From Vicinamibacterales bacterium (GTDB taxonomy: Bacteria > Acidobacteriota > Vicinamibacteria > Vicinamibacterales > UBA2999), in assembly GCA_035626435.1 (NCBI GenBank), contig DASPNQ010000007.1, forward strand, positions 18,451-82,450: a DNA stretch of 64,000 bases, read 5' to 3'. Below, piece by piece: positions 19,543 through 55,204 of the stretch (positions within the stretch are counted from its first letter, which is position 1; each line of letters starts with the position of its first letter). The notes beneath the pieces are model-generated. The model was given only the letters and a program-made list of their open reading frames with translations, was not told the origin of the DNA and did not search any database. The translations under genes and the position numbers were made by a program.

Positions 19543-19654
19543 GTTCGGAAAGCCATCAATCGCGGGCCCGCCGCGAATCGTGAGTTTACGACCAAGTAAC
19601 CGCGGGAAATGCAGCGAATGTGCCGGTTCACTTCTTGCACTTTGGCCGCCACTC

Positions 19655-28245: not shown

Positions 28246-29744
28246 TGTCTTCACCACCGCTCGTGTTGCTGATCAACCCCCGTATGTGCACGCCACGACG
28301 CGTGCGATTGCCGTTATCACTGCTGACGCTGGCGGCGAAGCTTCAAGGGCGGTATCGATACCAGGTTGTCGACGGCAATGTCGCCGACGTGAATGCTTCG
28401 ATCGGTGCGACACTGGGCGATTCGGCGCTGGCCATGGCGGCGGTCTCCGTGATGCCCGGGCCGCAGGTGCCGCCGGCGATAGAAGTCAGCCGCACCATCC
28501 GCGCGGTCCGCCCCGACGTTCCGGTGGTGTGGGGCGGCTATTTCCCAACGCTCTATCCAGACGCCGCGATCAACGCGCCCTACGTCGATGCGGTAGTTCG
28601 CGGACCCGGCGAAGACACTCTGCTCGAGTTGCTCGAGCATTGGCCGTCGGCTGCACACATCAACGGCGTCACGTGGCGCGACGGGAACCGCATCGTTCAC
28701 AACGCCGAACGCGCGCTTGCGTCGCCAACCGCTCTGCCGCCGCTGCCGTACGACGCGCTTCCCGACCTCGAGCCGTATTTGCGGCCAACCTTTCTTGGCC
28801 GCAGAACCGCCGTGCACCAGGCGGCAATTGGCTGCCGGTACCGTTGCCGCTTCTGCGGCGTCGTCTCGATGTTCAACGGCCAGACGCGTCTGCAACATGC
28901 CGACCGCGTGATCCGCGACCTGGCGCACCTGCAGCACCATTGCGGTGCTGACAGCGTGCAGTTTTACGATCACAACTTCTTCGATCGACAGCAGACGAGC
29001 GAGGAGACCCTGGAGGCACTTGCGCAGGTGCGCTTGCCGTGGTGGTGCTACGCGCGCGCGGATGCGCTGGCCGCGTTCACACCTCGCATGTGGTCACTCG
29101 CGCGGGAGAGCCGGATGCGGATGGCCTACATCGGCGCCGAAACCGGCAGCAACGAGGCACTACGGAGAATGCAGAAGGGCGGCCGTGTGGAAACGACGCT
29201 GGAAGTGGCGGCCAGGCTGCGCGAGAACGGCATCACACCGGAGTTCTCGTTCGTGCTGGGCGGCCCCGACGATCCTGAAGCCGATACCGAGGCGACCTTC
29301 GAGTTCATCCGTCGGCTCAAGCGCGCGCACCCCGCCTGCGAGGTGGTTCTCTATTTCTATAGTCCCACTCCGCAACGCGACCCGCGGTCGGCCGCGCGCG
29401 ACGGCGCCGCGAGTCTCCCGCGCCTGGAGCGGTATGGCCCTGCCGGTCCGGCGCTGCCGACAACGCCCGAGGAATGGAGCGAGCCGCGGTGGGTGCGATG
29501 GGTATGTCATCAAGATGCACCGTGGCTGACGCCGCGTCTTCGGCAGCGCGTGCGGGACTTTGCGCGTGTGCTCGAGTGCCGGTTTCCAACCGTTCAGGAT
29601 CACCACACGCCCGGCTGGCAAAAGAGCGTATTACGCGAGATGGCGCGATGGCGATGGGCGACCAGAACCTATGCGCGGCCGCTCGAGCTGGCGCTCGCTC
29701 GTAAGGGCATTGCGCTGCGCCAGCCGCAGGTTGAGAGTTTGTGA
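28242..29744 (+). CDS. B12-binding-domain radical SAM enzyme, type B paralogue 2
   Basis: Contains LVLLINPRM...LPLSLLTLAAKL, VVWGGYFPT, AAIGCRYRCRFCGVV and GAETGSNEALRRM. Colinear with the 24819 gene. The GTGATG start overlaps the upstream stop. Confidence 0.8.
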   Translation: MMSSPPLVLLINPRMCTPRRVRLPLSLLTLAAKLQGRYRYQVVDGNVADVNASIGATLGDSALAMAAVSVMPGPQVPPAIEVSRTIRAVRPDVPVVWGGYFPTLYPDAAINAPYVDAVVRGPGEDTLLELLEHWPSAAHINGVTWRDGNRIVHNAERALASPTALPPLPYDALPDLEPYLRPTFLGRRTAVHQAAIGCRYRCRFCGVVSMFNGQTRLQHADRVIRDLAHLQHHCGADSVQFYDHNFFDRQQTSEETLEALAQVRLPWWCYARADALAAFTPRMWSLARESRMRMAYIGAETGSNEALRRMQKGGRVETTLEVAARLRENGITPEFSFVLGGPDDPEADTEATFEFIRRLKRAHPACEVVLYFYSPTPQRDPRSAARDGAASLPRLERYGPAGPALPTTPEEWSEPRWVRWVCHQDAPWLTPRLRQRVRDFARVLECRFPTVQDHHTPGWQKSVLREMARWRWATRTYARPLELALARKGIALRQPQVESL

Positions 29745-30784
29745 GGGCCATGGGCGCCAGTCCAGGTGAAATCGTCCGACGTGCTCGCGGGCGTATCAGC
29801 GGACGGCTCGAGAGCCTGCCGATTCTTGCGCTCAGCGTCCACAGCGCCTGCAACTGCCGCTGCGTGATGTGCGATATCTGGAAAGCCAATGCCGACAAGC
29901 GCGAAATTTCCGCGGCGGACCTCGATCGGCACGTCGAGTCGATCCGCGCGTTGCGCGTCCAGCGCGTCATGCTCACCGGTGGCGAGCCGCTGTTGCATCG
30001 CAATTTATGGGCGCTCTGTGCGCGGCTCCGCGAGTTGCGGATTCGCATCACTCTGGTGACGACAGGGCTGTTGATCGCGCAGCACGCGGCCGATATCGCG
30101 GCGGCCGTCGACACGGTGGTGATTTCGCTCGACGGGGACCGCGACGTGCATGATGCGCTGCGCGCCGTCAAAGGCGGATTCGATCGAATCACCGCCGGCG
30201 TGACGGCGCTGCGCGCAACGCAGCCAACCCCGCGCCTGATCGCCCGCTCTGTCGTCCAATGCGGCAATTACCAGTCACTGGCCGACACCATCGCAGCGGC
30301 CCATCGCGTCGGCTTCGACGAGATCTCCTTCCTGGCCGCCGACGTCACGTCGCCGGCCTTCAATCGCCCGACGCCATGGCCGGCCGATCGTGTCGCACAG
30401 ATCGCGGTCCGCGATTACGCGGCCCTATCGTCCGCGATCGATCACGCGGTCACCACACTCCCGGATCTCTTCGATAACGGCTTCGTCGTGGGAGGGCGGC
30501 CGGCGCTCGATCGCGTTCGCAAGTATTACGAAGGGCTGGCAGGCGCCGGTGACTTCCCCGACGTGCAGTGCAACGCCCCGTGGGTGTCGGCCGTCCTCGA
30601 GCCTGACGGCGCTGTGAGGCCGTGTTTCTTCCAACCTGCCTACGGCTCCGCCGCTGAGGGGCTGATGAACGCCGTGAATTCGCCGTCGGCGATCGCGTTC
30701 CGGCGCGCCCTCGACGTCATGTCGAATGCGACATGCGAGCGCTGCGTATGCAGTCTGCACTTGCCGCTCACGAAATCGGTCTAG
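29741..30784 (+). CDS. Radical SAM enzyme with C-terminal SPASM/twitch-like Cys-rich domain
   Basis: Contains SVHSACNCRCVMCDIW (CX3CX2C) and LTGGEPLL. The C-terminus has C-X12-G-X4-C (QCNAPWVSAVLEPDGAVRPC) and then CERCVC. Start is GTG 29741 or ATG 29750; the former overlaps the upstream stop. Confidence 0.8.
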   Translation: MRAMGASPGEIVRRARGRISGRLESLPILALSVHSACNCRCVMCDIWKANADKREISAADLDRHVESIRALRVQRVMLTGGEPLLHRNLWALCARLRELRIRITLVTTGLLIAQHAADIAAAVDTVVISLDGDRDVHDALRAVKGGFDRITAGVTALRATQPTPRLIARSVVQCGNYQSLADTIAAAHRVGFDEISFLAADVTSPAFNRPTPWPADRVAQIAVRDYAALSSAIDHAVTTLPDLFDNGFVVGGRPALDRVRKYYEGLAGAGDFPDVQCNAPWVSAVLEPDGAVRPCFFQPAYGSAAEGLMNAVNSPSAIAFRRALDVMSNATCERCVCSLHLPLTKSV

Positions 30785-31887
30785 ACCAGACTCCGATACA
30801 AACGATCAAACTGCGCCGCCGACCACTCGACATCGTGCGCGAGCGAAAAGCTCCGCGCGAGCCCGGCAATCGACTGCCGCCGCCCGGTGTCGACGCATAA
30901 AAGAACGATCGCGGCCGCCAGCGACCCCGGAGTCGCGTCCCGAATCGCTAGCGCCTGCACCGGCGCCCAGTCGGCGACATAACCGGCCATCGTCCCGACT
31001 GCCGGCACACCGTGCGCCGCAGCCTCGAGCACCGCCACACCGGCAGCCTCGTGGAGTGACGATTGGACGTAGAGATCAGACGCCGACAGGATGTCGTGCA
31101 CGCGTGACTGCGGCAAGAAGCCGTGGAAGGTGACGTGCTCGGCAATGCCGACTCTCGCGGCGTGCCTCTGCAGGGCGCCGCCAAGCATGTCGTCACCAAT
31201 CAGATCGAGCCTGGCGTCGACCGATTCCCGGACGATCCGGAATGCGTCGAGCAGCAGGCGCTGATTCTTGACGCGGCTGAGAGTGGCGACCTGCACAAGT
31301 CGGTAGCCGTCCTGCAATCGGGGCGATCGCGCTTTGACTGCCGCCGGCGTCACGGATGTCAACGGTATGACGGTGGCCTGGATGTTACGCGCCCGCGCCA
31401 GATTGGACATGAACTGCGTACAAACGTGAACGCGCGTCGCGAGTGCGCACGCTTCATTCACCGCCTGCCGTCCCGTCGATGTTCGCTGTGAACCGTAGTC
31501 AATGGCGGGCAGCGAGACGAATTCGCCGCTGTCGCAGGTGACGACGCTTGGCACACCGAGCCGATGAGCCGCGCGAGCGGCAAGCTGTCCAGCGGGATCC
31601 GCGTGAAATCCGTGTATGAGATCGAATGGCCCCGTCGCCTCGAATGCGGCGGCCAGCGCTCTATCCTGCGCCCGCCGAGTCATCCCCGGCAGCCCGGACG
31701 GTCGACCAAGATCGTGAACGGTGAAACCGCGCAATTGGTAGGTCTGCGGCGTATGCAGATGCCGGAGCGCGAAGGCGTGAACGTCATGCGATCGCGACAG
31801 CGCTTCGAACAAGGCCAGCCACGATGGCACGACTTGAACCTCGCCGCTCGGGTGCAGCCCGCCGGGCACGACCATTGCGAGTTTCAT
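30781..31887 (-). CDS. Glycosyltransferase family 4
   Basis: Start taken at MKLAMVVPGGLHPSGE... Contains ...YVQSSLHEAAGVAVLEAAAHGVPAVGT. Its stop shares the tetranucleotide CTAG with the convergent radical-SAM gene stop. Confidence 0.8.
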   Translation of the reverse strand: MKLAMVVPGGLHPSGEVQVVPSWLALFEALSRSHDVHAFALRHLHTPQTYQLRGFTVHDLGRPSGLPGMTRRAQDRALAAAFEATGPFDLIHGFHADPAGQLAARAAHRLGVPSVVTCDSGEFVSLPAIDYGSQRTSTGRQAVNEACALATRVHVCTQFMSNLARARNIQATVIPLTSVTPAAVKARSPRLQDGYRLVQVATLSRVKNQRLLLDAFRIVRESVDARLDLIGDDMLGGALQRHAARVGIAEHVTFHGFLPQSRVHDILSASDLYVQSSLHEAAGVAVLEAAAHGVPAVGTMAGYVADWAPVQALAIRDATPGSLAAAIVLLCVDTGRRQSIAGLARSFSLAHDVEWSAAQFDRLYRSLV

Positions 31888-31993
31888 GGTTGTTGGCCGT
31901 AAATGATAGTGGTCCGGCGATGGTGGTTGGGGGTTTGTGGTCGGCCGCTGGCTGTCTGTTGGATGAGAATGCGACTCACGCAACCACGATCCA

Positions 31994-33130
31994 CTAACCG
32001 CCAACCAACGATTGGTATTCGGCGATGGTGCGCGCAGCGAGTGCGGGCCAGCTGAGGTCGCGATCGAATCGAGCCTTGGTCGCCGCGCGTTGCGTAGCAA
32101 GATTGCCGTGGCAGACGTCGACCAGTGCGCGCGCAAAGGCGTCCGCGTCGCCCGCCGGCCACCGCTGTCCGCAGTCGCCCGCGATGGCGCGAAACGGCGG
32201 AATCGCTGTCACCACCGGGACAACGCCGGACGCCATTGCCTCGATCAGCGCATAACCGCTGCCTTCGGAGTGACTGCCGCTGACGAAGACGTCCGCGGCT
32301 CCGTAGTAATTCGGCATCTCGTCCCGCGGCACTCGCCCGACGACCACGACGGCGCGTTGCAGCAACTCGGAGGCTGCAATCCGCTGTTCGACGACCGGCA
32401 GCAGCGTATCGTCGCCGAACACCATCACGACGCGCGCGTCGGGTAATTGCGGCAACGCGTGTTCGAGCCCCGCGAGCACCGTCAACGGATCTTTATTGGT
32501 AGTCAGGCGACCGACCCACAGGATGACTGGTTCGGCGTCGACCGATAGCGCACTGCGCGCGCGCGTACGATTCACTGTTCGCAATGTAGTGCTGGCCTCG
32601 ACGATTTCGAGAACCCGCTGGTCACCAAGGACGCCGGCTTCGCGCCACGGTTGCGCCTGCTCCGCGGCTGTGAACGACACGGCGCTGGCCGCCATCAGGC
32701 CGCCCTTCCAGCCGCGGCGCTGCCACATGCCCACCAGACCCGATCCGCGAACCGGAAACTCACCGCCGTGATGCTGCACGACGATCGGCGTGCGCGCGCC
32801 AATCGCTCTGCGGACCGCCGCGACGAGTTGCGGAAAGATCAGCCCATTGATGTGGACGACGTCAGCAGGATGACTGGCGATCGCGCCGACGAATGCCGGC
32901 GGCGCCGCCGTCGTCGAAAGCCACGGTGGCTCCCGGTCGGCCGTGAACTGATACGACACACCATCTCGCTCGATCCTCGCCGTAGTGTGGAACCGCTGAA
33001 CGACCGCCACCGACGCACCCGCGGCAGTAAGCGCGCTGCTCCATTCGGTCAACGTGTGGTAGGCGTCGAGTAGCGCCGCCGCCGTCTTGAGCGAACCGTC
33101 ATAGGCCGCGTTCGCGACTACAATGCGCAT
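31994..33130 (-). CDS. Glycosyltransferase family 4/1
   Basis: Contains ...VGRLTTNKDP... and FVSGSHSEGSGYALIEAMASGVVPVVT. The ATG directly follows the tetR stop (TGAATG). Confidence 0.8.
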   Translation of the reverse strand: MRIVVANAAYDGSLKTAAALLDAYHTLTEWSSALTAAGASVAVVQRFHTTARIERDGVSYQFTADREPPWLSTTAAPPAFVGAIASHPADVVHINGLIFPQLVAAVRRAIGARTPIVVQHHGGEFPVRGSGLVGMWQRRGWKGGLMAASAVSFTAAEQAQPWREAGVLGDQRVLEIVEASTTLRTVNRTRARSALSVDAEPVILWVGRLTTNKDPLTVLAGLEHALPQLPDARVVMVFGDDTLLPVVEQRIAASELLQRAVVVVGRVPRDEMPNYYGAADVFVSGSHSEGSGYALIEAMASGVVPVVTAIPPFRAIAGDCGQRWPAGDADAFARALVDVCHGNLATQRAATKARFDRDLSWPALAARTIAEYQSLVGG

Positions 33131-33899: not shown

Positions 33900-36800
33900 G
33901 TGCCGCCCATCACCTCGATCATCGAGCCGTCAGCCGATGCGCGCCTTGCCGCCGCTCGAACCCTGACGCTCGCGCTCGAGCCCCCGGCTTTGATCGTGGC
34001 GTCGACGCGCTCGGCCGCCGACGAATTTGCGTTGAGCCTGGCAGCAGTCCGTGGCGCGACGTTCGGGATCACGCGCGCCAGCCTCGCAGAGGTGGTCGTC
34101 GGGATTGCCATTCCCGCGCTCTCTCGCAACGGGTTGACGCCGAGCGCACCGTTGAGCGACGAGGCGGTTTCGGCCCGCGTCGCCGACCACCTGCTGACGA
34201 AGAACGGCCTCAAGTACTTCGCCCCGGTCGCCGGCCTTCCTGGATTTCCGCGAGCACTCAGCCGCACGCTCAGCGAGTTGCGGATGGCAGGAGTTGCCCC
34301 GTCACGATTGTCTGGACACGACGCGAACGACGACCTTTCGGCTTTGCTCGCACATGCGATCGACGAGCGGCACAAATCCGGCGCCGTGGACTACGCGACG
34401 ATGCTCGCGACCGCGACAGAGGAGCTGACCCAGCGGCCGGACGCTTTCGCAGATCGACACCTGGTCCTTCTCGACGTGCCTGTTACTTCGAAGGCTGAAG
34501 CCGCGTTCATCCAGGCGCTGATCGCCGGTGCCCGCAGCGCGATCGTCACCGCAGCCGAAGGCGACCGGCGCACGATCGCCGAGTTGAACCTCGCGCCGGA
34601 CACCGCAGCGGCCTCGCCAGGGCCGGCCGGCGACGGGTCGGCCTTGCGCCGGCTGCAAAAATTCCTTTTCACCGAGCATCCTCCACCCGCCGGCGCGATC
34701 GACTCGTCCGTCGAACTGTTTTCCGCTCCCGGAGAAGGCCGGGAAGCGATCGAGATCGTCCGGCGCGTGATGCGTGAAGCATCGCGTGGCGTGCCCTTCG
34801 ATCAGATGGCGGTGCTGCTGCGCGCGCCGCAGACGTATCTCGGTGTGCTGGAACATGCATTGGAGCGCGCCGGTGTGCCCGCATGGTTTCATCGCGGCAC
34901 GCGTCGTCCCGACGCCGCCGGCCGGGCGTTGCTCGCGTTGCTGGCGTGCGCAGACGACGACCTCTCTGCCCGTCGATTCGCGGAGTACATCTCGCTTGGC
35001 CAGGTGCCGCTGAGCGAAGCCGGCAACGCCGATTTATGGTCGCCGCCGGCAGACGAGGTGATCGAAGCAGTGTTGCCGTTGGCCGAGCGCGCCGCCGACG
35101 TCCAGCCGGAAGAAGAAGCGGCCGAGCAGGCCCGTCGTGGTGAATCCGATCGTGACCTCGCCGGCACGCTTCGGGCGCCGTGGCGATGGGAAGATCTGAT
35201 CGTCGAGGCGGCCGTGATCGGCCGCCTGGATCGATGGCAGCGCCGCCTCAAAGGTCTCGAGCACGAGTACGATCGCCGGTTGCGCGAGGCGGCGTCGGAG
35301 GATCCGGACGCCTCGAGGGTGCGCGCGCTGCGTCGCGATCGCGAACAGCTTCGCGCCTTGCGCGGGTTTGCCGAGCCGATCCTTTCCGAGATGGCCGAGT
35401 GGCCTCGCCACCAGTTGTGGGGTGACTGGTTGAAGGCGCTCGAACAACTCGCGCCGCGGGTGATCGCGAAGCCCGAGCGCGTTCTGCGAGTGTTGAGAGA
35501 GCTGACGCCGCTTGCGGCAATCGGCCCCGTCACGCTGCGCGAAGTTCGCGATGTGTTGACACCGCGACTGTCGACCCTGACGCATGAGCCGCCGCGCCGG
35601 CGGCAGGGACGGGTGTTCATCGGCACACCCGGCGCGGCGCGCGGCCGCTCGTTTCGAGTTGTGTTCGTGCCGGGACTCGCGGAGCGGATGTTCCCACAAC
35701 GGATTCGCGAGGACGCGCTCCTGCCGGATCGGCGCCGTGAGCCAATCGATCCGACGCTGGCGACACAACCGCGTCGCGCCGCTGACGAACGACTGCAATT
35801 GACGCTTGCGGTAGGCGCCGCGTCCGAGCGGCTCTACGTCTCGTTTCCGCGGGTCGAGCTGAACGAATCGCGCCAGCGCGTCCCGTCGTTTTACGTGCTC
35901 GACATTGCCCGCGCGATCGAGGGCCGCATCCCGCCCGCGTCGCTGCTGGCCGCCCGTGCGTCGGAGACTGGCGGCGCCACGCTGGCGTGGCCGGCACCAC
36001 GCGACGCCGACACCGCGATCGACGATTTCGAGCACGATTTGGCGACGATGGCGGCCCTGCTTCGCAACACCAGCGACAGTGTCAAGGGCCGCGCGCGTTA
36101 TTTGTACGAGCTGAGTCCCGAGTTGCAGCGGTCGCTGTCTTCGCGCTGGCTGCGCTGGCACCGCAAGCAATGGGACCCCGCTGACGGCATCATCCGCACG
36201 ACCGAGACGACGCGCGCCGCCCTCGCCGCTCAGCGCCTGGGCGCGCGTCCGTACTCCTTGACCGCGCTGCAGCGATACTCGGCGTGTCCATACCAATTTC
36301 TGATGGCCGCTGTCTATCGGCTGGCGCCGCTCGAAGCGCCGGCGCCTTTGCAAAAGATGGATCCGCTGACGCGCGGTGATTTGTTCCATCAGATGCAGGC
36401 GGGAGCGCTGCGACGCTTACAAAACGACGGGCTGTTGCCGCTCTCCGCAGAGCGCCTCGCGGATGCGCAACAGCGTCTCACGGACGCGATTCGCGACGTC
36501 CACGATCGCGAGTACGACCGCCTCAACCCGGCGATCGAACGCGTCTGGCAGGACGAAATCGCCGCGATGACACAGGACTTGCGCATGTGGCTCGAGAAGC
36601 TCGCCGAAGAAGGGGTCGAGTGGACGCCGGAGCGTTTCGAGTTTGCGTTCGGCCTCAGCGAGTTGGAAGGTCGAGACGAACACAGCACGCCGGAGCCGGC
36701 GCTGGTTGACGGCCGCTTCCGGCTGCGTGGCTCGATCGACATGATCGAGCGTCATCGCAAGACCGGTTTTCTGCGGGTCACCGATCACAAGACCGGCAAG

Positions 36801-42010: not shown

Positions 42011-44153
42011 GGGTCAGCGCTTCCGGCGAGGTGCGATCGTGACTGGCGGGTACTGACAGGGTGAATACGCTGCCTTGGCCCGGTTCGCTGGCAACGTCGA
42101 GGCGCCCGCCATGCGCTTCCGCAATCCGCAGCACCAGGTTCAGGCCGAGCCCGCTTCCCTGAATCTGTTGCGCGACCGCATCGCGGCCGCGATAGAACGG
42201 TTCGAAGATGTGCTTGCGGTCTTCGGCATCGATGCCAAGGCCGCGGTCTTCGACGGCAAACGTCACCTCCGGTGCCGGCAGCCGGCGGCCGGGCGCCGTG
42301 CGCGCCGATACGCGAAGCCACCGTGCCTGACCGCCGTACTTGACGCCATTGCTGATCAAATTCTGCAGTGCGGCTTTCAGCGCGGTCGCGTCGCCGGCGA
42401 TGTGCGGCAGGTTGTCGGCAATCGACACTTCAACGGCGACGCCGGCCTTCTCGATTTCGTTCCGGCACGCGGCGATCGATTCATGAACCAGCTCCGCCGG
42501 GCTGATTGGCGTCTGCGCCGCGGCGGCCGTGCCGGCGGCAATGCCGGCCAGTTGCAGCACGCGCTCGACCGTCTCACCAAGACGGCGCGCTTCGTTTTGA
42601 ATGGTCTCGCCGTACTTGCGCACCCGCTGGGGATCGCCAACCACGCCGTCGGCAAGGTTACCGGCTGCGGCGCCAATCACCGAAACCGGAGTGCGAAGCT
42701 CGTGTGAGACCGCTGCGACGAACTCGATCTGCTGTCGTGCCAGCGCCTGCGCCCGCCGCGCCGACACCACGATCAAGCCGACCGCCAGCGTCAGCAGAAT
42801 CAGTACGCTCGAACTGATCAGCAGATTGCGCAGGCGCACCGCCGCGACGGCATTTTCGAGGGACCCGGCGCGATGCTTGGCCATCAACAGCCACCGGCCC
42901 TCACTGGGAAACGCACCGCTACGCGCAATGATGCGGCCGCCACGCCCGTCCCGACGCTCTTCGCGCTCGATCATCGAGACCACGATGTCTTCTTTCCGAG
43001 CGCCGGGACCTGGGAACCGGGAGCCGGAGTTGTGCAGGGTTTCGCCGGTGCCGGACGCGTGCTCCCGGTTCGCGGCTCCCGGCTCCCGGCTGCCGGGATT
43101 GTGCGTGGCTTCGAGTTCCCCAGCTGCCCGTTGACGGCTCCCGGCTCCCGTCTCCCGGCTCCCGGGCGGAGGTGTGGGCGGTGGAACGGCCACGGTCTGC
43201 GTGGTGACGTCGCCACGCAAGTTGCGTGCGAACAGGAACATCTGATCCGGCCGCGGGCCCATGAAGGTTTGCGCGACATCGGGCGCGGCCGCGATCGCAG
43301 GGGCAATGCCCGGTTCGGATTCCCACACGACGTTCGCTGCATCGTCGCGCTGAACCACCGCCACGCGATAAGCGGACTCGAATTCGTCGCCGTGAAAGTG
43401 GCGCGCCGCCAAAGACGCGAGGATTGTCTCGCGGATGATCGCTGGGTCGAGCCGGACGATCGTGAAGCCGAGAATGGAAATTTTCGGCGGTCCTGGCCGC
43501 TCGTCGGAGACTTCGAACAGTGTCACTGGTGAGATCAGCGTGTTGTCATCGCCGATCGTCATCGACATGGTGGCTTCCCGGCGCGTTGCCATCGAGCCGT
43601 CGCCGCGGCGAGTCTGTGGCAAATGCAGTCCAATGAAGCGCGCCGCGAGCGAATCGCGAACCTTGAGCAGATCTTCAGGCCACGGCGATTCCTCGAAAGA
43701 GAGCGTTCCAGGATTCCATCGTCGCGCGCGGAGGCGGTCGATCGGGATTGCCGCGCCGCGTTCGAGTGACATCGGATCCGGCAGCGGTGTGCCGGGTAGG
43801 GTGTCGACCAGCCACACCTCGCGGACCAGTCGCGGCTCGCTGGCGCTGCTCACCCAGGCGGAATAGCGTTGCGCGTAAGCCGCCCAGTTCTGGTCTCGAA
43901 TGGTCTGGCCATCGACCTGAAGACTCACCAGCGTGCGCGACAGTTCGCCGTCGAATTCGGTCGCGAACTGGGCGGCGGCGGTTCGGAGCGTGCGCTGCAT
44001 GCGCTCCCTTTCGGCAGTGCTCAACTGGCCGAGCCACTGGTACTGCATCCACGCGAGCGCCGGCACGAGCAGCATGACGATGCCGACGAGGATCGTCACT
44101 GCCGAGACACGCCGCCGTCCGGCATGCAGCGCCGCGCGCCTGCCGAAGATCAT
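41982..44153 (-). CDS. Sensor histidine kinase (two TM segments, large extracytoplasmic domain)
   Basis: H-box AAVSHELRTPVSV, N-box LISNGVKYG, and DRGLGI / GSGLGL. The sensor domain carries a low-complexity insert encoded by GGGAGCC-type repeats. Confidence 0.85.
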   Translation of the reverse strand: MIFGRRAALHAGRRRVSAVTILVGIVMLLVPALAWMQYQWLGQLSTAERERMQRTLRTAAAQFATEFDGELSRTLVSLQVDGQTIRDQNWAAYAQRYSAWVSSASEPRLVREVWLVDTLPGTPLPDPMSLERGAAIPIDRLRARRWNPGTLSFEESPWPEDLLKVRDSLAARFIGLHLPQTRRGDGSMATRREATMSMTIGDDNTLISPVTLFEVSDERPGPPKISILGFTIVRLDPAIIRETILASLAARHFHGDEFESAYRVAVVQRDDAANVVWESEPGIAPAIAAAPDVAQTFMGPRPDQMFLFARNLRGDVTTQTVAVPPPTPPPGSRETGAGSRQRAAGELEATHNPGSREPGAANREHASGTGETLHNSGSRFPGPGARKEDIVVSMIEREERRDGRGGRIIARSGAFPSEGRWLLMAKHRAGSLENAVAAVRLRNLLISSSVLILLTLAVGLIVVSARRAQALARQQIEFVAAVSHELRTPVSVIGAAAGNLADGVVGDPQRVRKYGETIQNEARRLGETVERVLQLAGIAAGTAAAAQTPISPAELVHESIAACRNEIEKAGVAVEVSIADNLPHIAGDATALKAALQNLISNGVKYGGQARWLRVSARTAPGRRLPAPEVTFAVEDRGLGIDAEDRKHIFEPFYRGRDAVAQQIQGSGLGLNLVLRIAEAHGGRLDVASEPGQGSVFTLSVPASHDRTSPEALTLAREATTTR
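42998..43175 (-). repeat. GGGAGCC-type repeat block inserted in-frame in the kinase sensor domain
   Basis: The sense strand carries runs such as GGGAGCCGGGAGACGGGAGCCGGGAGCC and GGCAGCCGGGAGCCGGGAGCCGCGAACCGGGAG. They encode PGSRETGAGSRQ..ATHNPGSREPGAANRE..TLHNSGSRFPGPG. Confidence 0.85.
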
Positions 44154-48103: not shown

Positions 48104-49216
48104 GTGAATCGGCCGTCGGTGATCGTCGTCGGTGCCGGCATCGTCGGATGCACCGTCGCCTATGAGCTCGCGAAAGCCGGTGCGCGAGTGCAGGTGCTGG
48201 AGACTCGCTCACCCGGACAGGGCGCGACGCGCGCGTCGGCGGGAATCCTCGCGCCGTTCATCGAAGGGCACGGCTCGGAGCGTCTTCGCGAACTCGGCGC
48301 GCGCAGCCTCGACCTGTACGACGACTTCATCGCCCGGCTTCGCGAAGACGGCGAAGATCTCGTCTATCAGCGCAACGGGACGTTCGAGCTGGCGTTTTCA
48401 GATGCCGACGTCAGCCGCTTGAACGAACTGGCCGGCGGACTGTCAGACCGCGGCATCGAGACACGTTGGATCGATGCCGGTGGATTCGGCGACGTGGAGC
48501 CGCTGGCCAATCCGCGAGCGATCGGCGGTCTGTTGATCCCGGCACACGGCTTTGTCGGTGTGACGTCACTAACCCTCGCCGCCGCGGCCGCCGCGAAAAA
48601 ACTTCATGCGCGGTTTCGGACAGAGACCGGTGCCATCCATATCTTTGGGATGTCGAACGCTCGCATCGGCGTCAAGACGGCGCGTGCCATCTGGGAAGCC
48701 GATCGCGTTGTCATGGCCGCCGGCAGCTGGTCTTCGTCCATCACGATCGAAGGCGCCGATCGCATACCGGTGAAGCCGATCCGCGGGCAGTTGATTCAGT
48801 TGCAGACGGAGCCGGGTTCGATCGGTCGAGTGCTCTGGGGTCCTGACGGCTATCTGGTGCCGTGGCCCGACGGGTCGGTGCTGGCGGGATCGACCGTGGA
48901 AGACGTCGGCTTCGATGAGACGCACACCGCGGAGGCTGTCGAGTCGTTGCGGTCCGCGGCGGCCGCGCTGGTGCCGAGCCTCGGTTCGGCCGCGTTGACC
49001 GAGGTGAGGACGGGCTTGCGGCCGAAAGGCCCCGACGATTTACCGATACTGGGGATGTCGCGTGTACTGCCGGGCGTGATCTACGCCACCGCCCATTACC
49101 GGAATGGCGTGCTGTTCACGCCGTTGACAATGCAGCTGGTGCGCGATCTGGTGTTCGATCGCGACACCGACCCGGCATTGCGCGATCTCGATCCGTCGCG
49201 GGTCGGAACGCTATAA
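48104..49216 (+). CDS. FAD-dependent oxidoreductase, glycine/D-amino-acid oxidase (ThiO/DAO) family
   Basis: Contains VIVVGAGIVGCTVAYELAKAGARVQVLE (GxGxxG) and ASAGILAP, with overall DAO-family colinearity. GTG start. Confidence 0.8.
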   Translation: MNRPSVIVVGAGIVGCTVAYELAKAGARVQVLETRSPGQGATRASAGILAPFIEGHGSERLRELGARSLDLYDDFIARLREDGEDLVYQRNGTFELAFSDADVSRLNELAGGLSDRGIETRWIDAGGFGDVEPLANPRAIGGLLIPAHGFVGVTSLTLAAAAAAKKLHARFRTETGAIHIFGMSNARIGVKTARAIWEADRVVMAAGSWSSSITIEGADRIPVKPIRGQLIQLQTEPGSIGRVLWGPDGYLVPWPDGSVLAGSTVEDVGFDETHTAEAVESLRSAAAALVPSLGSAALTEVRTGLRPKGPDDLPILGMSRVLPGVIYATAHYRNGVLFTPLTMQLVRDLVFDRDTDPALRDLDPSRVGTL

Positions 49217-49230: not shown

Positions 49231-49545
49231 ATGGCATTGCTCACCCCTGAAGAGATCGCCGAGCGGTTGAAGAGCCTCGACGGCTGGTCGCTGCATGGCG
49301 CCGCCATCAAGAAGCAGTTCACGTTCCAGGATTTTCCCGAAGCGGTGCTGTTCGTGAGCGCGCTCGTGCCGGGCGCCGAGGACGCCGATCATCATCCCGA
49401 CATCGAGATTCACTACAAGCGCGTGATTCTGAGTTACACGACGCACGACGAGGGCGGGCTGACGCAAAAGGACCTCGACGGCGCGGCCATGGCCGAGGCG
49501 GTCGCGGCGAACCTTCCTCATCTCGAGGAGTTCGGCGACGGATGA
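49231..49545 (+). CDS. phhB: Pterin-4a-carbinolamine dehydratase
   Basis: 104 aa. Contains LDGWSL...FTFQDF..A..FV..V...AEDADHHPDIEIHYKRV, the PCD signature. Confidence 0.9.
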   Translation: MALLTPEEIAERLKSLDGWSLHGAAIKKQFTFQDFPEAVLFVSALVPGAEDADHHPDIEIHYKRVILSYTTHDEGGLTQKDLDGAAMAEAVAANLPHLEEFGDG

Positions 49546-50042
49546 AGCTGAAGAAGCTGTACTCGTCGCGCGAGGTGGCACAGCTCACCGGACTCACGGC
49601 CAGGCAGCTTCAGTGGTGGGCGAAGCGGAATCTCTTCGCGCCGACGGTTCCCTCACACAAAACCGAAGCGGGCGGCTTCACCGAGCGGCGCTACACGCCG
49701 ATCGAGCTCCTCGAGTTGATGGTGCTCGCGGATCTGCGGCGCAAAGGCTTCAGCGTCGCGCGCATCCGCAAACTGCTGCAGGTGCTGCGGACGCGTTTCA
49801 AGACCCGTCTCTACGACGCCATCGAGGGCGGTGGTCCGGTGACACTGTACATCGACGGGGACAACATCTATGCGCGCACCGCCGACGGCGAATTGTTCAG
49901 CATTCTCGACAACGCCGCGCAACCGCTGATGATGATGGGCGAAGACATCAAGCTGCGTCAGCTGATCGCGCGCGAACGACCGGCGCGTCGCGCTGCGAAG
50001 GGTGTGGCGGCGTCCGGCAAGCGTGGAGCACCGCGCCCGTAA
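49542..50042 (+). CDS. MerR-like HTH transcriptional regulator
   Basis: N-terminal YSSREVAQLTGLTARQLQWWAKRNLF..., followed by RRYTPIELLELMVLADLRRKGFS. ATGA overlap with phhB. Confidence 0.7.
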   Translation: MKLKKLYSSREVAQLTGLTARQLQWWAKRNLFAPTVPSHKTEAGGFTERRYTPIELLELMVLADLRRKGFSVARIRKLLQVLRTRFKTRLYDAIEGGGPVTLYIDGDNIYARTADGELFSILDNAAQPLMMMGEDIKLRQLIARERPARRAAKGVAASGKRGAPRP

Positions 50043-50050: not shown

Positions 50051-50359
50051 TCAGGCCTTTGGCTTGAGCATCGGGAAGATCTTTTCGAGGTCTTCAACCG
50101 GGCGGGGGATGACGTGGACACCAATCAACTCGCCGACGCGCCGCGCAGCGGCGGCGCCGGCGTCGGTCGCGGCTTTTACCGAGCCGACATCGCCGCGGAC
50201 GATCGCGGTGACCAGGCCTGCGTCGACCTTTTGCCAGCCGACGAACACCACATTGGCCGCCTTCACCATCGCGTCCGATGCTTCGATCATGCCGATCAGG
50301 CCGCGCGTCTCGACCATCCCCAGCGCTTCGCCGACGATCTCGTTGTTCTTCGATGCCAC
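50051..50359 (-). CDS. Bacterial microcompartment shell protein, BMC-H (PduA/EutM/CcmK-type, PF00936)
   Basis: [77 protein letters not shown] is near-colinear with PduA-type hexamer proteins. Confidence 0.9.
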
Positions 50360-50390
50360 GCTCGAAGTTTATATCAACTGTTTTCCGGCC

Positions 50391-51503
50391 TCAGGTGATC
50401 TTTCCTCGCGCGGCAATGGCCAGCGGCTCGACGGTGTCCCCGTCGACGAGCCAGGCCTGATCGACCAGGTTCGACACCACACACGAATGATTCGGAATGA
50501 TCCGCACACGGTCGCCCGGTTCGAGAGCGGTCGATCCGGTCACTTTCACCGTGGCGTGCTCTTCCGACAAGCGCTCGACCAGCAGGTTGTCGTGGCCGAT
50601 CACCGCGCCGAAACCCGGCGCCGGCACGAAACCCCGGGCGCCGTCATTGGTCAGCGTCTTGCTGCCGCTGTCGAGGATGATGCGATCTCTCGCGGGCTTG
50701 CTGACGACGGTGGCAAGCACGGTCAGCGCGCAGTCGTCGACGGCAGCGGCGCCAAGCGCAACTTGCGTCCGATCGAAGTAAACGTAGTTGCCCGGTCGGT
50801 ATTCGGTGAATTCCTTTTGCGTGAGCGAGAAGCGCGCCGGCGGTGTGGCGCCGGCACTCACTTCCTCAACGGCTACCCCATTTTTCCGGCACCGCTCGGC
50901 GAGGTCCGACAGCGTCCGCGCCTCCGCGTCGGCCATCCGGCGCAGTTCGTCTTCGGAGTGGGCATGATAGGTCTGTCCGGCGTGTGACAGCAGGCCGCGG
51001 AATGTCAATCCCGGGAGCTCGGCGATCTCTTTGAACATCCGCAGCGCCTCGCGCGAGTCCGGATCGATGCCGCAGCGATGAAACCCGACGTCGACTTTGA
51101 TCAGAACGTCGACCATCCGGCCGGCGCGAGTCATCTCGGTGGACCATTGCCGGGCAACGGCCAGGTTGTCGACGATGAATGACAGGCGTGTGCGGTCGAG
51201 TAACGCGACGACGCGGTCCGCGTTGGAGGGATTGATCGGATAGGGCAGGCGGATGTCGGTGAACCCGGCATCGGCAAACACCTCGGCTTCCCCGAGCTTC
51301 GCGCAGCAGATGCCGGTGGCGCCGCGATCGATCTGCCACCGCGCGATCACCGGCGACTTGTGCGTCTTGGTGTGAGGACGAAGGCGAATGCCGCCGGCAT
51401 TCGCCGCAGCCTGCATGCGGTCGAGATTGCGAAGCGCCGCGGCCTTGTCGATCAGGACCGCCGGTGTCCGCAGCGAATCGACGCTGTCGAGGGTGCCGGG
51501 CAC
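50391..51503 (-). CDS. PLP-dependent D-threonine aldolase / DSD1 D-serine dehydratase family (alanine racemase N-domain fold)
   Basis: Contains TPAVLIDKAAALRNLDRM and LRPHTKTHKS (the PLP-lysine motif of the family). The C-terminal beta domain has ...RIIPNHSCVVSNL. GTG start lies 1 nt after the upstream stop. Confidence 0.8.
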   Translation of the reverse strand: MPGTLDSVDSLRTPAVLIDKAAALRNLDRMQAAANAGGIRLRPHTKTHKSPVIARWQIDRGATGICCAKLGEAEVFADAGFTDIRLPYPINPSNADRVVALLDRTRLSFIVDNLAVARQWSTEMTRAGRMVDVLIKVDVGFHRCGIDPDSREALRMFKEIAELPGLTFRGLLSHAGQTYHAHSEDELRRMADAEARTLSDLAERCRKNGVAVEEVSAGATPPARFSLTQKEFTEYRPGNYVYFDRTQVALGAAAVDDCALTVLATVVSKPARDRIILDSGSKTLTNDGARGFVPAPGFGAVIGHDNLLVERLSEEHATVKVTGSTALEPGDRVRIIPNHSCVVSNLVDQAWLVDGDTVEPLAIAARGKIT

Positions 51504-51504
51504 C

Positions 51505-52647
51505 CTATTGCTGCGTCTTCTTCTTGGCGGCTTCGCGTTCGTGCGCCCGCGCCCCGCTCATGACACCCTCCAGGCCGTAATTGGCCTCGTGACACGCGTA
51601 CTCGTAGACCATTTCGCCTGGCGCCATCGCATTGAAGACCAGTTCACCGGTGAACGGCGCCGTGAAGGTCGTCGGATCTTCGACCGTAAACCGATAGTTG
51701 ATCGTGTTCTGATCGCGCCGCGTCAGCCGCTCGGTCACCTTGAGGTGCTCCCAGGCGCCACGTAATCCGTGATTCGGGTGGAAGTTCGTCGTTTCGATGA
51801 CCAGCGTGTCGCCCTCCCAGCGTCCGATCGAATCGCCGAACCACTTGCGCAGTGCGGCAGGCGGATGCGTGCCGTTGATGCGGACGATGCGGGCGTCGTG
51901 CACCATTTCGGTGAGGATCACCACCGTGTCCTTCGACTGCACGATGGTGTAGCTGTTGTTGTAGTAGTAGTTCGGCAGCATCGGCGGTCCGGCGTTGTTG
52001 CCGAACGAGGTGATGCACCGCTCGCCGAGCGGCCGCAGCTCGGGATGATCGAACTCGCCGCCCTGGCTCTTGCGGATCTCGGCAGCCTTCGCCATCCGCG
52101 CGCGGGCAGCCTCGGTATACGGCGGGATACGGCCATTCTTCGGGTCGATGATCATCGAACTGCGTGGTTGTCCGTCGACACGCAATACGCGATCGCCGGG
52201 ATCGATCCAGAACGAGTTGTAGCCGCCGACCACGCCGGCCCCACCCTGCCACACCCGTTCGAGATAGGTCGGCTCGGCATTCGGGCTCTTGCGAAGCTCG
52301 CCGCCGACCGGCGGGGCGGCGCGATTCGGGTCGCTCGGCTGCTCGCGGAATTCCACCGCGGCGCGGGTCTTGGTTTCTTCATCTCGCGCCACGTCCTCGG
52401 TGATCACCAGCGGCGTGTTCGGGCGCAGGCGTTCGAGTGGCGTGATGGTGGCGTTCGTCCAATTGCCCTGCAGGTCTGGGCGCCCGTCCGGCATACGCGG
52501 GATCGCGCGTGGCGCCGCTGTTGCGCGACGTGCCGCGGGCTTCTGCGTAGCCGGTGCCTGCGCCACCGCGAAGCCGGCGGCCAGAACGATCGCGGCGAGT
52601 GTCGCGCCGGCGATCTGGAGTTGGGTGACGGCATATGGGCGGCTCAT
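51505..52647 (-). CDS. Secreted protein of unknown function (paralogue 2)
   Basis: Signal peptide. Shared motifs with the upstream gene: GRPDLQGNW, IGRWEGDTLVIETTNF, LKVTERLTRRDQNTINYRFTVEDPTTFTAPF. ATGA overlap with the upstream gene. Confidence 0.6.
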   Translation of the reverse strand: MSRPYAVTQLQIAGATLAAIVLAAGFAVAQAPATQKPAARRATAAPRAIPRMPDGRPDLQGNWTNATITPLERLRPNTPLVITEDVARDEETKTRAAVEFREQPSDPNRAAPPVGGELRKSPNAEPTYLERVWQGGAGVVGGYNSFWIDPGDRVLRVDGQPRSSMIIDPKNGRIPPYTEAARARMAKAAEIRKSQGGEFDHPELRPLGERCITSFGNNAGPPMLPNYYYNNSYTIVQSKDTVVILTEMVHDARIVRINGTHPPAALRKWFGDSIGRWEGDTLVIETTNFHPNHGLRGAWEHLKVTERLTRRDQNTINYRFTVEDPTTFTAPFTGELVFNAMAPGEMVYEYACHEANYGLEGVMSGARAHEREAAKKKTQQ

Positions 52648-53513
52648 TTCAACGGCTCCTTCCGCAGGTGGCCGTACATTAACTCAGTCACGAACTCGAC
52701 GCATTTGAACTGGCCGAGCTGGGCGTTCTTCTCGACGCGGCGGTAGAGCGGCATGCTCATCTTCCATGGACGCGTGTAGGTCCCAGGATCGTCGAGCGTT
52801 GCCTCGTAGTTGATGTGATCCGCATCCGTCATGGTGAAGCGCTCCGTGACTTTGAGGCGCTCGGAGTGATGATTGCCAGCGCGATCGAGCCACGTCTGGC
52901 CGTTGAATCCCGAGGTCTCGACCACGAAGGTGTCGCCTTCCCAACGGCCGTGGGAAATGCCCATCCAGCTGTCGACCTGCGGCGGACCGGGATCTTTCGG
53001 GTAAATGTGGCGGACCGCGCCGGCGTACTCATACGCGATGAAGGTGGCGTAGCTGCTCTGAGTAATCTGAAAAGGAAAGGGCATATAGGTCGCCCGCGGC
53101 ACGCCGGGAAGGTAACACTTGATTTCAGGATCCCGTGTCAGCCAGTTCGCCTGGTTCTCCTGTTTTTTCTTCAGGCCCTCGGGCGTGTAGGGAATTTCAT
53201 CGCCTTCGACCACGCCAAGCCCGCCCGGAACGGCGCCGACCGCACCGAGTGCGATCACTTCCTTTGCCGGCACGGGCACGATCGGTCCCGGTCGCATCGC
53301 GAGTGCCGGTTTGGCCATGTGCGCCTGGATGTCCCAGTTCGCGGTATTCACCGCCTGCCACAGGCCGTTGAGATCCGGTTTGCCGTTCAGGCGCGGCACC
53401 GCGCCGGCTCGCGCCTGTCCTTCGACGGCCGGGTTTGATACCAATGCGAACGTCGCCGCGGCCACGCCGGCGACGATGGACAGTTGTAGTACGGACGACC
53501 AACGCATACGCAC
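52644..53513 (-). CDS. Secreted protein of unknown function (paralogue 1)
   Basis: Signal peptide. Motifs: GKPDLNGLW, HGRWEGDTFVVETSGF, LKVTERFTMTDADHINYEATLDDPGTYTRPW. Confidence 0.6.
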   Translation of the reverse strand: MRMRWSSVLQLSIVAGVAAATFALVSNPAVEGQARAGAVPRLNGKPDLNGLWQAVNTANWDIQAHMAKPALAMRPGPIVPVPAKEVIALGAVGAVPGGLGVVEGDEIPYTPEGLKKKQENQANWLTRDPEIKCYLPGVPRATYMPFPFQITQSSYATFIAYEYAGAVRHIYPKDPGPPQVDSWMGISHGRWEGDTFVVETSGFNGQTWLDRAGNHHSERLKVTERFTMTDADHINYEATLDDPGTYTRPWKMSMPLYRRVEKNAQLGQFKCVEFVTELMYGHLRKEPLK

Positions 53514-53595: not shown

Positions 53596-54567
53596 ATGCC
53601 GCTACAGGTGGTTCCCGCCGTTGGCCCGGTCCTGGACCAAATCCTTGCCGATACGCACCCGCTGTGGCATGACGGACTGTCGCTCGCCAATTATGCGAAA
53701 GCCTGGCACGCGCAGCTCAAGACGCCATGGGGCATGCAACATCTCGATCGCGTAGCGCTGATCGACGGCCCGCATGTCCTGGCCAGTGCCAAACGGTACG
53801 ACCTGTCGGTACGGTTCGACGGCCGGATCCGGCGCGTGCTCGGCATTGGCGCCGTCTTCACCCCCGACGCACACCGCGGCCGGGGCTTCGCGCGTGAGTT
53901 GATCACGCGGATGCTGGACACTGCCGTCACCGAAGGACAGGAGTTCGCCATGCTGTTCTCCGAAATCTCGCCGGCGTTTTACGAGCGGCTCGATTTCGTG
54001 CCGGTGCCGTTGATTGAATCCACACTCGAAGTCGATCAGAAGCGCGGCGGCGCGCCCGCCATGCTCGTCCGCAGCGGCGACGACAAGGATCTGCCCGCGA
54101 TCGCCGAGATGAGCGCCGCACGCGCAGTCGACGCACGTCTCGCGCTGGATCGCGCCGAGGACTTCATCCGCTTCAACATCACGCGCAAGCGCTTGCAGTC
54201 GGGACTGGCACCTCTCGGCACGCGCCACACCGAGTTTCTGGTCGTCGAAGAAGGCCACCAGGCGGTGGCGTATCTGGTGAGCACCGAACAGGACGGCCGC
54301 TGGATGATCGAAGAGGCGGGCGATCGCGATCCGGCCGGCGCGCGTCTCGGCGCCATGCTGCAGGTGATGCTGGCTCGCTATCCGAGCGAGCGTCTGCCGG
54401 AGATCAAGTGCTGGTGGCCGCGCGCATTGGTGCCACCGCAGGTGCGCGTCGCGGCCGCGATACCGACCCAGTCGGTTCTGATGATCAGGCCATTACGCGA
54501 CCGCATCCTGCCCCTGCCGCCGCTTGCCGCCGCGGAAGTCGTGTATTGGCATGCGGACTATTTCTAA
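53596..54567 (+). CDS. GNAT-family N-acetyltransferase (multi-domain)
   Basis: GAVFTPDAHRGRGFARELITRML matches the acetyl-CoA-binding R-x-x-G-x-G/A region. 323 aa. Confidence 0.65.
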   Translation: MPLQVVPAVGPVLDQILADTHPLWHDGLSLANYAKAWHAQLKTPWGMQHLDRVALIDGPHVLASAKRYDLSVRFDGRIRRVLGIGAVFTPDAHRGRGFARELITRMLDTAVTEGQEFAMLFSEISPAFYERLDFVPVPLIESTLEVDQKRGGAPAMLVRSGDDKDLPAIAEMSAARAVDARLALDRAEDFIRFNITRKRLQSGLAPLGTRHTEFLVVEEGHQAVAYLVSTEQDGRWMIEEAGDRDPAGARLGAMLQVMLARYPSERLPEIKCWWPRALVPPQVRVAAAIPTQSVLMIRPLRDRILPLPPLAAAEVVYWHADYF

Positions 54568-54570
54568 CCG

Positions 54571-54790
54571 AGAGCCGGGAGCCGGGAGCCGGGAACCGGG
54601 ATTCGGAAGCCGGGAGCCGGGAGCCGGGAGCCGGGAACCGGCAGCGGCGAGCGGGGGATCGTAGACCGCGGAGCCGGGCGGGGGTCGGGGTGGCGATCCG
54701 GGAGCGGGCCTGGGAGCCGGCAGCGGGAATCCGGGAGCGGCGAGCGGAGAGTGGCAGCGCGGCGCCGCGCGGGCGAGGGGGTCGCAGCGA
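54571..54790 (+). repeat. Largest GGGAGCC/GGGAACC microsatellite array (two canonical G3N4 x4 blocks plus degenerate copies)
   Basis: The array starts 4 nt after the GNAT stop. It reads AGAGCCGGGAGCCGGGAGCCGGGAACCGGGATTCGGAAGCCGGGAGCCGGGAGCCGGGAGCCGGGAACCGG... and then degenerates (GGAGCCGGGCGGGGGTCGGGG..). Confidence 0.9.
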
Positions 54791-54823: not shown

Positions 54824-55204
54824 CTACTCGATCGTGCGTGATGCGAGAGACTCGTGCAGTCTATAAAGCATCGCGCCCACGCGATCACTCGTCGCGAGCA
54901 GATGGGAGCAGGTAGCTTCGTCCATTAGCGCGTTACGCCGGGCAATTTCGATGTGAGTTTCCAATTCGCCTTGAGAGCCCATCGCGATGGACACGTGGTT
55001 CTGATATGCCGATGTGCGCTTCTTTCGTCGATAGCCCTCCGCCACATTCGACGGAATTGACGCAGCGGCACGACGAATTTGCCGCCGGAGATCGAAATCG
55101 GCGCGCGGCAGCTGCCTTGTCGATACGTAAACCAAATCTACAAGATCCATAGAGACCTGCCACACCTCAAGATCGCGGAATGAGCTCGGCGTCGCTGCAC
55201 ACAT
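54824..55204 (-). CDS. Four-helix-bundle protein (23S rRNA intervening-sequence protein / TIGR02436 family)
   Basis: Contains FRDLEVWQVSMDLVDLVY, LRRQIRRAAASIPSNVAEGYRR and ..SIAMGSQGELETHIEIARR, the typical family signature. Confidence 0.85.
   Translation of the reverse strand: MCAATPSSFRDLEVWQVSMDLVDLVYVSTRQLPRADFDLRRQIRRAAASIPSNVAEGYRRKKRTSAYQNHVSIAMGSQGELETHIEIARRNALMDEATCSHLLATSDRVGAMLYRLHESLASRTIE

Follow-up and report, generated by a model that had tools for sequence, protein, structure and literature searches.

What does a single microcompartment shell gene do at the end of a four-gene operon, next to one enzyme gene and two genes for exported proteins? The question is raised by a 64,000-nt stretch of contig DASPNQ010000007.1 from a Vicinamibacterales bacterium (hereafter the window), which encodes one protein of the BMC-H family, the hexamers that build the shell of bacterial microcompartments (BMCs). 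The enzyme encoded next to it depends on pyridoxal 5'-phosphate (PLP). We propose, with a probability of roughly 0.6, that the shell gene is a satellite of the ACI type of microcompartment, an acidic-pored paralogue whose usual place of expression would be the tail of a catabolic operon that also supplies a cytosolic enzyme of the D-serine dehydratase (DSD) type. The operon is composed of the following features.

52644..53513, minus strand: gene of an exported paralogue, 289 amino acids (aa), first gene of the unit
51505..52647, minus strand: gene of an exported protein, 380 aa, with a signal-peptide-like N-terminus
50391..51503, minus strand: gene of a fold-type III PLP enzyme, 370 aa, with PF01168 and PF14031
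50360..50390, minus strand: spacer of 31 nt between the PLP gene and the BMC-H gene
50051..50359, minus strand: BMC-H shell gene, 102 aa, GTG start at 50359, last gene of the four-gene unit

All the coordinates and spacings of these genes given by the first-pass annotation were confirmed in the sequence. The two genes of exported proteins overlap by ATGA (52644-52647), a single nucleotide at 51504 separates the second from the PLP gene (TAG-G-GTG), and the gap of 50360-50390 precedes the shell gene. The GTG at 50359 is the sole start codon 5' of the conserved EALG strand, and a TAA lies 12 nt upstream of it. Scans of the minus strand of the 31-nt gap revealed neither a sigma-70-like promoter nor a terminator, and the hairpin in the RNA fold of 50340-50420 was not significant (z = -1.73); with no promoter, terminator or stable hairpin in the gap, read-through of the operon would be the simplest expectation. 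The locus also turns up in metagenome assemblies, on contigs of 73 and 162 kb. The MAG of the window has the locus-tag prefix VEC39, and its strain is represented in ERZ27257312 as well (contig k141_176686).

The shell protein and its clade

The 102-aa gene is predicted to encode a genuine BMC-H shell hexamer. Its product matches PF00936 with an E-value of 5.5e-27 and 94 bits (cutoff 24.5), over profile positions 1-75 of 75, and aligns end to end with PduA (3NGK, E 2e-35), as well as with the EutM and HO-5815 structures; with the EutM equivalog it scores 130.8 bits, slightly below the cutoff of 133. The description of a canonical PduA-like hexamer in the first-pass annotation holds for the family and for the end-to-end alignment with PduA. 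It does not hold for the pore, which is KVDAG and not KIGSG, nor for the edge motif, which is PRPV and not PRPH.

The host and all the close relatives of the window proteins belong to the Vicinamibacterales, which correspond to Acidobacteriota subdivision 6. According to the 2021 BMC catalogue (PMC8217296), the ACI type is exclusive to Acidobacteria, chiefly subdivisions 4 and 6, and its aldehyde dehydrogenase (AldDh) is located on a satellite. The same catalogue classes the solitary BMC-H genes of ACI genomes as satellites, and loci in which a satellite shell protein is joined by enzymes form an accepted category (PMC8217296). Vicinamibacteria and Blastocatellia, both very abundant in soils, are among the carriers of these compartments.

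A search with the window BMC-H against species-representative genomes returned at least 80 loci, and the class counts given here are those among the matches listed. The loci sort into three BMC-H classes. Group A, to which the window copy belongs, comprises at least 15 Vicinamibacterales species with 76-86% identity to the window BMC-H, and no BMC-P, aldolase or AldDh gene was found within 10 kb of any of its loci. The ACI main type (67-74% identity) is preceded by an aldolase gene and directly followed by three BMC-P genes. Its locus encodes a class II aldolase (PF00596) with an encapsulation peptide (EP), the BMC-H, three BMC-P, a small EP protein and a D-2-hydroxyacid dehydrogenase, an architecture verified by Pfam on one locus (L059) and by independent gene calls on three others (L087-L089). 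The third class, the AldDh-satellite type, has the pore loop KEYIGAGYV and is followed by a PF00171 protein of 580-608 aa (L071, L073, L078, L081). In the loci listed, the group A clade is always apart from both the ACI main locus and the AldDh satellite, and the metagenome-assembled genome (MAG) SMAG_U3631 has a group A locus (L015) as well as a main locus (L041). Together these comparisons indicate that the window BMC-H gene is a member of a specialised paralogue clade confined to Vicinamibacterales.

Two loci should be mentioned separately. On the Vicinamibacterales chromosome OZ252293.1 (L067, 8257-12026), a divergent group-A-like BMC-H with an RVDAG pore and a PRPA edge has no PLP gene adjoining. 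It is flanked by genes of a RidA/YjgF-like protein and an S33/S15-type hydrolase on one side and of an M19 dipeptidase on the other, surroundings with a peptide or enamine-detoxification theme that is reminiscent of dehydratase chemistry. The group A locus of CAYNUO010000015.1 (L016) is labelled 'Bifidobacteriaceae', and its synteny (BMC-H, MerR, PCD, ThiO) is of the Vicinamibacterales type; it is probably mis-binned or mislabelled.

The residues that separate group A from the main type include those of the pore loop and of the edge motif. The pore loop of the window protein is K44-V45-D46-A47-G48, in which D46 aligns with G39 and A47 with S40 of PduA, positions that we take from established structural work to line the pore. 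Every group A copy has KVDAG at this loop, versus K-I-G-[AS]-G in the main-type copies, and the fixed differences between the two classes include D46/G, V45/I and N36/K. The KVDAG loop would place a ring of six Asp residues at the pore of the hexamer. The edge motif PRPH has lost its His throughout the clade (PRPV in the window, PRP[VASG] across group A), and the group A proteins end shortly past IFP, with a short C-terminus. The lattice motif D29-A-M-V-K33 (DxxxK) and the Arg of P-R-P are kept in the window protein and in all the group A copies. According to established structural work on PduA and CcmK, this Lys and this Arg make the contacts between hexamers, and with both retained, tiling should be possible.

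The absence of any other BMC gene from the window, claimed by the first-pass annotation, was borne out. A tblastn search of the window with its own BMC-H matched this gene alone, and queries taken from related loci for the ACI components (BMC-P, class II aldolase, 2-hydroxyacid dehydrogenase, small EP protein and acylating AldDh) gave no match in the window. PROSITE regular expressions for ALDH were dropped as a test for AldDh, as they were insensitive and missed the true ACI AldDh of L078 and L081; the test finally used was tblastn with the AldDh of L081. A Pfam sweep of about 45 open reading frames (ORFs) of the window contained no PF00171 (AldDh), PF06130 (phosphotransacylase), PF00596 (aldolase) or PF03319 (BMC-P), with the reservation that a few of these ORFs (16222-18364, 34302-36389) matched no Pfam family and may be mis-called.

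Since the 64-kb window has neither BMC-P nor cargo genes, and none lie within 10 kb in the group A loci, a use of the hexamer that is independent of microcompartments has to be considered. It would then work outside a closed shell, as a sheet, a scaffold or a partner of MerR-regulated genes, in genomes that perhaps have no complete BMC; the finding of the main locus in one of 15 group A genomes, among the matches listed, and the lost His of PRPH are in line with this. However, ACI compartments are at home in this order, a MAG (SMAG_U3631) carries the two kinds of locus, the Lys and Arg of the lattice are kept, and solitary BMC-H genes of ACI genomes are already catalogued as satellites, so that we regard such a use as quite unlikely. 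The satellite reading, which was one of the options left by the first-pass annotation, is preferred because the clade always stands apart from the ACI main locus and its BMC-P genes, in an order that has ACI main loci, and because one MAG carries both.

The window gene resembles the ACI type and its satellites in the catalogue (PMC8217296): phylum and order agree, its product is 67-74% identical to the main-locus BMC-H, and it is alone, away from the BMC-P triplet, as noted there for occasional extra BMC-H genes. The difference is that neither a KVDAG pore nor a PRPx edge is described in the catalogue, and PF01168 and PF14031 are absent from the supplementary text, where '14031' occurs only in fragments of locus tags. 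A functional parallel may be found in CcmK3 and CcmK4 of beta-carboxysomes (PMC5853843; PMC8217296), hexamer paralogues that are obligately distal and are thought to tune permeability through separate regulation. These belong to another compartment type, whereas the window satellite sits in a catabolic operon beside one specific enzyme and has an acidic pore residue.

The PLP gene as partner of the shell gene

The shell gene and the PLP gene are a mutually conserved pair, which supports more strongly than the first-pass annotation could tell the idea that the two belong together. From the shell side, a PLP gene lies upstream on the same strand in 13 of the 15 group A loci, with 58-67% identity to the window enzyme and a spacing to the BMC-H gene that is mostly 10-130 nt in the relatives. 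From the enzyme side, a metagenome scan gave 80 contigs with PLP enzymes of 59-83% identity, 15 of which had too little downstream sequence. A KVDAG BMC-H adjoins the PLP gene in 59 of the 65 informative contigs (55 co-directional downstream and four inverted) and is missing from the remaining six. The pore Asp is invariant in every copy, in genome loci and metagenome contigs alike. The flanks of this two-gene cassette vary: DUF1800 and DUF1501 genes stand upstream of the PLP gene in most relatives, and the genes of a MerR-family regulator, a pterin-4a-carbinolamine dehydratase (PCD) and ThiO stand downstream at a variable distance.

In two Mb-scale contigs close to the window, with PLP identities of 82% and 78%, an intact single BMC-H gene has the orientation opposite to that in the window and lies co-directional downstream of MerR (L086, 12190-12456; L090, 9105-9371); in L086 a DUF481 gene also separates it from the PLP gene. 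Adjacency is thus strongly kept but co-transcription with the enzyme is not obligatory, because the BMC-H gene is inverted in these two contigs and in four metagenome contigs. In another relative (L010, 8843-9999) the PLP gene is split by a frameshift, either as a pseudogene or through a long-read error.

The 370-aa enzyme had its best PDB match in the D-threonine aldolase 4V15 (2.7e-52), followed by 3ANU (1e-43) and 3WQC (2e-42), which are chicken D-serine dehydratase and D-threo-3-hydroxyaspartate dehydratase, respectively. The paper on the structure of AxDTA (4V15) reports conservation of the Mn ligands (His347, Asp349) and of the base (His193) across all 19 aligned D-threonine aldolases, and states that the dehydratase uses His and Cys, without His193. 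The window enzyme and its orthologues were aligned with 4V15, 3ANU, 3WQC, FmDTA, two BhcC, and plasmid proteins of the DSD1 family and the 'D-TA family', and four motifs separated the classes as follows.

Aldolases (AxDTA, FmDTA, BhcC): metal H-x-D; YxGxxQH; GGTGS; FMDxDY
Dehydratases (3ANU, 3WQC, DSD1-family): metal H-A-C; HxGxxY; GSTP; F[FY]D, no insertion
Window enzyme and orthologues: metal PNH-S-C; SHAGxxY; GATP; YFD-RTQ

The window enzyme and its orthologues are of the dehydratase type in four of four motifs, and the aldolase ligand Asp349 is a Cys in all of them (PNH-S-C). The PLP lysine motif RPHTKTHK and the motifs SHAGQTY, GATP and PNHSC of the window enzyme align with those of 3ANU, 3WQC and the DSD1-family protein. 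At the position of AxDTA His193 the window enzyme has a His, which is Gly or Ser in several orthologues. Compared with 3ANU, yeast Dsd1p and 3WQC, the enzyme shares the PF01168 plus PF14031 fold, the PLP lysine motif, His-x-Cys, HxGxxY and G[ST]TP, and, as in 3ANU and 3WQC, there is no insertion after the YxFxD strand; it differs from these two in the His at the His193 position and in a full-length similarity below that to 4V15 (1e-43 and 2e-42 versus 2.7e-52). With AxDTA and BhcC it shares the superfamily, the best overall score (4V15) and a C-terminal domain that aligns to the very end, whereas HxD, YxGxxQH, GGTGS and FMDxDY are all absent. By its residues, the active site is of the dehydratase and not of the aldolase type. 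Judged by these motifs, the reaction is probably a beta-elimination that turns a D-beta-hydroxy amino acid into a 2-oxo acid and ammonia.

No EP-like extension was found at either terminus of the window enzyme or of any of the 14 orthologues aligned, a feature that the first-pass annotation had suggested looking for. The first conserved strand begins after about 10 residues, and three residues extend beyond the end of the 4V15 alignment. Both termini coincide with those of the crystallised enzymes, which leaves no room for an encapsulation peptide; by contrast, a C-terminal extension of about 100 aa is present in the ACI aldolase of L059.

These results bear directly on the idea, put forward by the first-pass annotation, of an aldehyde-releasing enzyme that would fit the logic of a metabolosome. 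In its full form the enzyme would be a D-threonine aldolase, and its acetaldehyde would be handled in a compartment built with this shell protein. The best full-length PDB match is indeed a D-threonine aldolase, the closest plasmid homologues are labelled 'D-TA family' by PGAP, and an acylating AldDh does belong to the ACI compartments, encoded on another satellite. But the metal ligand Asp349 is replaced by Cys and the other three aldolase motifs by dehydratase-type versions, opposite to AxDTA, FmDTA and BhcC; the His193 equivalent is not conserved among the orthologues, and the BhcC equivalog NF045642 scores the window enzyme at 169.1 bits, versus a cutoff of 690. The argument fails because the enzyme is dehydratase-type in all four motifs and has no encapsulation peptide, and we consider an aldolase metabolosome very improbable. 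In this way a tempting mis-annotation is corrected, the active site of the 'D-threonine-aldolase-family' enzyme being of the dehydratase type.

The proteobacterial proteins closest to the enzyme are encoded on Phaeobacter and Rhizobium plasmids (L175, 1-1107; L177, 1-1122), with 40-44% identity for the best matches, and they are the proteins named 'D-TA family' by PGAP. PNH-x-C-VVSNL is present in them and the SHAGxxY motif is absent. The genes of the two examined lie directly after a gene of an M81 (MlrC-like) metallopeptidase, which suggests a role in the catabolism of peptide-derived amino acids.

The pairing itself raises another explanation, that of a dedicated module in which the Asp-pored BMC-H and the PLP enzyme physically cooperate and extend the substrate range of the ACI compartment. 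The enzyme could be docked on the ACI shell or enclosed by it without a canonical EP, or the pore could be a conduit for its substrate or product, with the acidic residues passing zwitterionic or cationic species such as a D-amino acid or NH4+. The very high mutual adjacency speaks for this, being maintained across 59-84% enzyme identity and mostly at 10-130 nt while the flanking genes vary, and so does the pore Asp that no copy has lost. Shell-plus-enzyme satellites are an accepted category, and peptide or D-amino-acid themes recur near the clade, as in the RidA-like gene and M19 dipeptidase of L067 and the S15 peptidase of L084. On the other hand, no orthologue has a terminal extension or an amphipathic EP, the shell gene is sometimes inverted or persists without the enzyme, the expected products are 2-oxo-acid anions that an acidic pore would disfavour, and any link to the known ACI enzymes is speculation only. 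Physical cooperation of this kind is unlikely in our view. The more specific proposal of a dedicated ACI module, in which the Asp-ringed hexamer would gate selectively or provide a tile for docking, its partner being an enzyme of D-beta-hydroxy amino acids that is not itself encapsulated, is more doubtful still. If true, a dedicated module would give a first handle on what ACI compartments metabolise in the abundant soil Acidobacteria, and an example of a shell protein genetically tied to a cargo-less partner enzyme. The EUT modules (EutABC and EutL) of HO/SPU BMCs (PMC8217296) are comparable, as a satellite of shell protein and enzymes that could extend the function of a compartment. Their enzymes, however, are a known BMC signature set and their shell protein, a BMC-T, has a gated pore, whereas the enzyme family of the window is new to BMC loci and has no EP.

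We therefore return to the satellite reading, for which we infer the following mechanism. The PLP gene and the BMC-H gene form a two-gene cassette, with which a minus-strand operon of four genes would end at its 3' side in the window. The PLP enzyme, most likely cytosolic, would convert a D-beta-hydroxy amino acid (D-Ser, D-Thr or a D-3-hydroxyaspartate-like compound) into a 2-oxo acid and ammonia. Co-transcription would supply the acid-pored tile whenever the catabolic operon is on; incorporated into the facets of the ACI shell as a minor component, the tile would change the permeability of that shell, in line with what is proposed for CcmK3/K4 and other satellites.

Several observations weigh against this reading. 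The ACI main locus is expected in this genome from its relatives, and a group A and a main locus were seen together in one MAG alone, among the matches listed. Loss of the PRPH His could weaken the lattice contacts. The loci L008 and L016 keep the shell gene without a PLP gene, and in L086, L090 and four metagenome contigs the inverted shell gene is co-directional with MerR. Finally, a pairing this strong at about 60% enzyme identity suggests a functional link closer than mere co-expression.

As a satellite BMC locus, the window operon has two undocumented features, its conserved enzyme partner and the Asp that is invariant at the pore; the literature searched contained no link between BMC shell genes and this PLP enzyme family or Vicinamibacteria. 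A fixed acidic-pore paralogue beside one D-amino-acid-type enzyme across the order offers a testable lead on the tuning of ACI permeability or substrate range.

The exported paralogues

The two upstream genes were taken by the first-pass annotation for secreted paralogues that fit an organelle poorly, and both points stand. The 289-aa and 380-aa proteins are related (BLASTP 3e-18, 35% identity over 127 C-terminal residues) and have a common PDLxGxW motif. Both begin with a hydrophobic, signal-peptide-like segment (Kyte-Doolittle 2.3 over 15 aa), which in the 380-aa protein is followed by an AxA site, and both have exactly two Cys residues. Neither matched a Pfam or NCBIfam model, and for the family of the 380-aa protein profile searches also gave no Pfam or PDB sequence match.

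At E<=1e-3 the family takes in 12,007 cluster representatives, the clusters being drawn at 50% identity. In its alignment, C211 and C352 (numbering of the 380-aa protein) are invariant and a YEYACHEGNY motif is conserved. An AlphaFold2 model of the 380-aa protein from a diverse alignment had a predicted local distance difference test score (pLDDT) of 82.6 and a predicted template modelling (TM) score of 0.78; an earlier model from a shallow alignment (at least 74% identity to the query) had a pLDDT of 40.9 and was discarded. The model presents an alpha/loop N-terminal region and a C-terminal eight-strand, calycin-like beta-barrel. Foldseek matches of the C-terminal domain were weak and included streptavidin, FABP and CRABP (E about 2e-3, TM on target 0.45-0.5). 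From this model, the paralogues are best described as exported small-molecule-binding-like proteins. With more than 12,000 clusters at 50% identity and no Pfam model, they are a candidate new domain family.

The pair is absent from all 15 group A species loci. It accompanies the cassette only in the sub-lineage of the window (L084, L086, L090), where it lies between DUF1501 and the PLP gene, together with a VapBC pair in L084 and L086; it is also found isolated, in another context (L091). A replacement of DUF1800/DUF1501 by the exported pair was considered and rejected, since L084, L086 and L090 carry both pairs; for the same reason, the window has simply lost DUF1800/DUF1501. Judged by gene order, the exported pair is a lineage-specific two-gene module that shares the operon in the window and stands outside the conserved cassette. 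It would have been inserted upstream and would have nothing to do with the organelle.

Flanking genes and other features of the window

The operon is bordered by genes on the plus strand.

48104-49216, plus strand: ThiO-type glycine oxidase, TIGR02352 262.7 bits (cutoff 250.8)
49231-49545, plus strand: pterin-4a-carbinolamine dehydratase (PCD), NF002017 103 bits (cutoff 80)
49542..50042, plus strand: MerR-family regulator, PF13411 at 1.1e-12, convergent with BMC-H across an 8-nt gap
53596..54567, plus strand: GNAT acetyltransferase, PF13527 at 7.1e-13, divergent from the operon

The MerR gene adjoins the group A BMC-H in most loci. By synteny, ThiO and PCD are a conserved flanking block, unrelated to the shell. 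The PCD was considered as an acRAF-like carboxysome assembly factor and rejected in this role. Although it lies two genes from the shell gene, it is a genuine PCD because the full catalytic motif (HHP...Y...H...D) is present, and it passes the PCD equivalog cutoff. On the other side, the GNAT gene is the conserved edge of the syntenic block in L009, L015, L018, L020, L084, L086 and L090.

The spacer after the GNAT gene contains a heptamer tandem repeat (CCGGGAG, 12.7 copies, 54568-54656). Complement-type repeats (GCTCCCG / CGGCTCC) are found at 43056-43165, inside a histidine-kinase gene, where they encode a low-complexity insert, and an array of 32/68-bp repeats is located at 12725-12886. Between the GNAT gene and a CarboxypepD_reg gene, 54824-55204 on the minus strand encodes a four-helix-bundle protein of the 23S rRNA-intervening-sequence type (PF05635), which is also present in L090.

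Farther from the operon, three successive genes encode B12-binding radical-SAM proteins (24711-26219, 26216-27613 and 28242-29744). This trio is followed by a SPASM radical-SAM gene (29741-30784) and then by a glycosyltransferase gene (30781-32136, minus strand). The window also encodes a Wzy/O-antigen-ligase-like protein (19325-21358) and a methyltransferase (22410-23366). The region of radical-SAM, glycosyltransferase and Wzy-like genes could be a modified-peptide or polysaccharide cluster.

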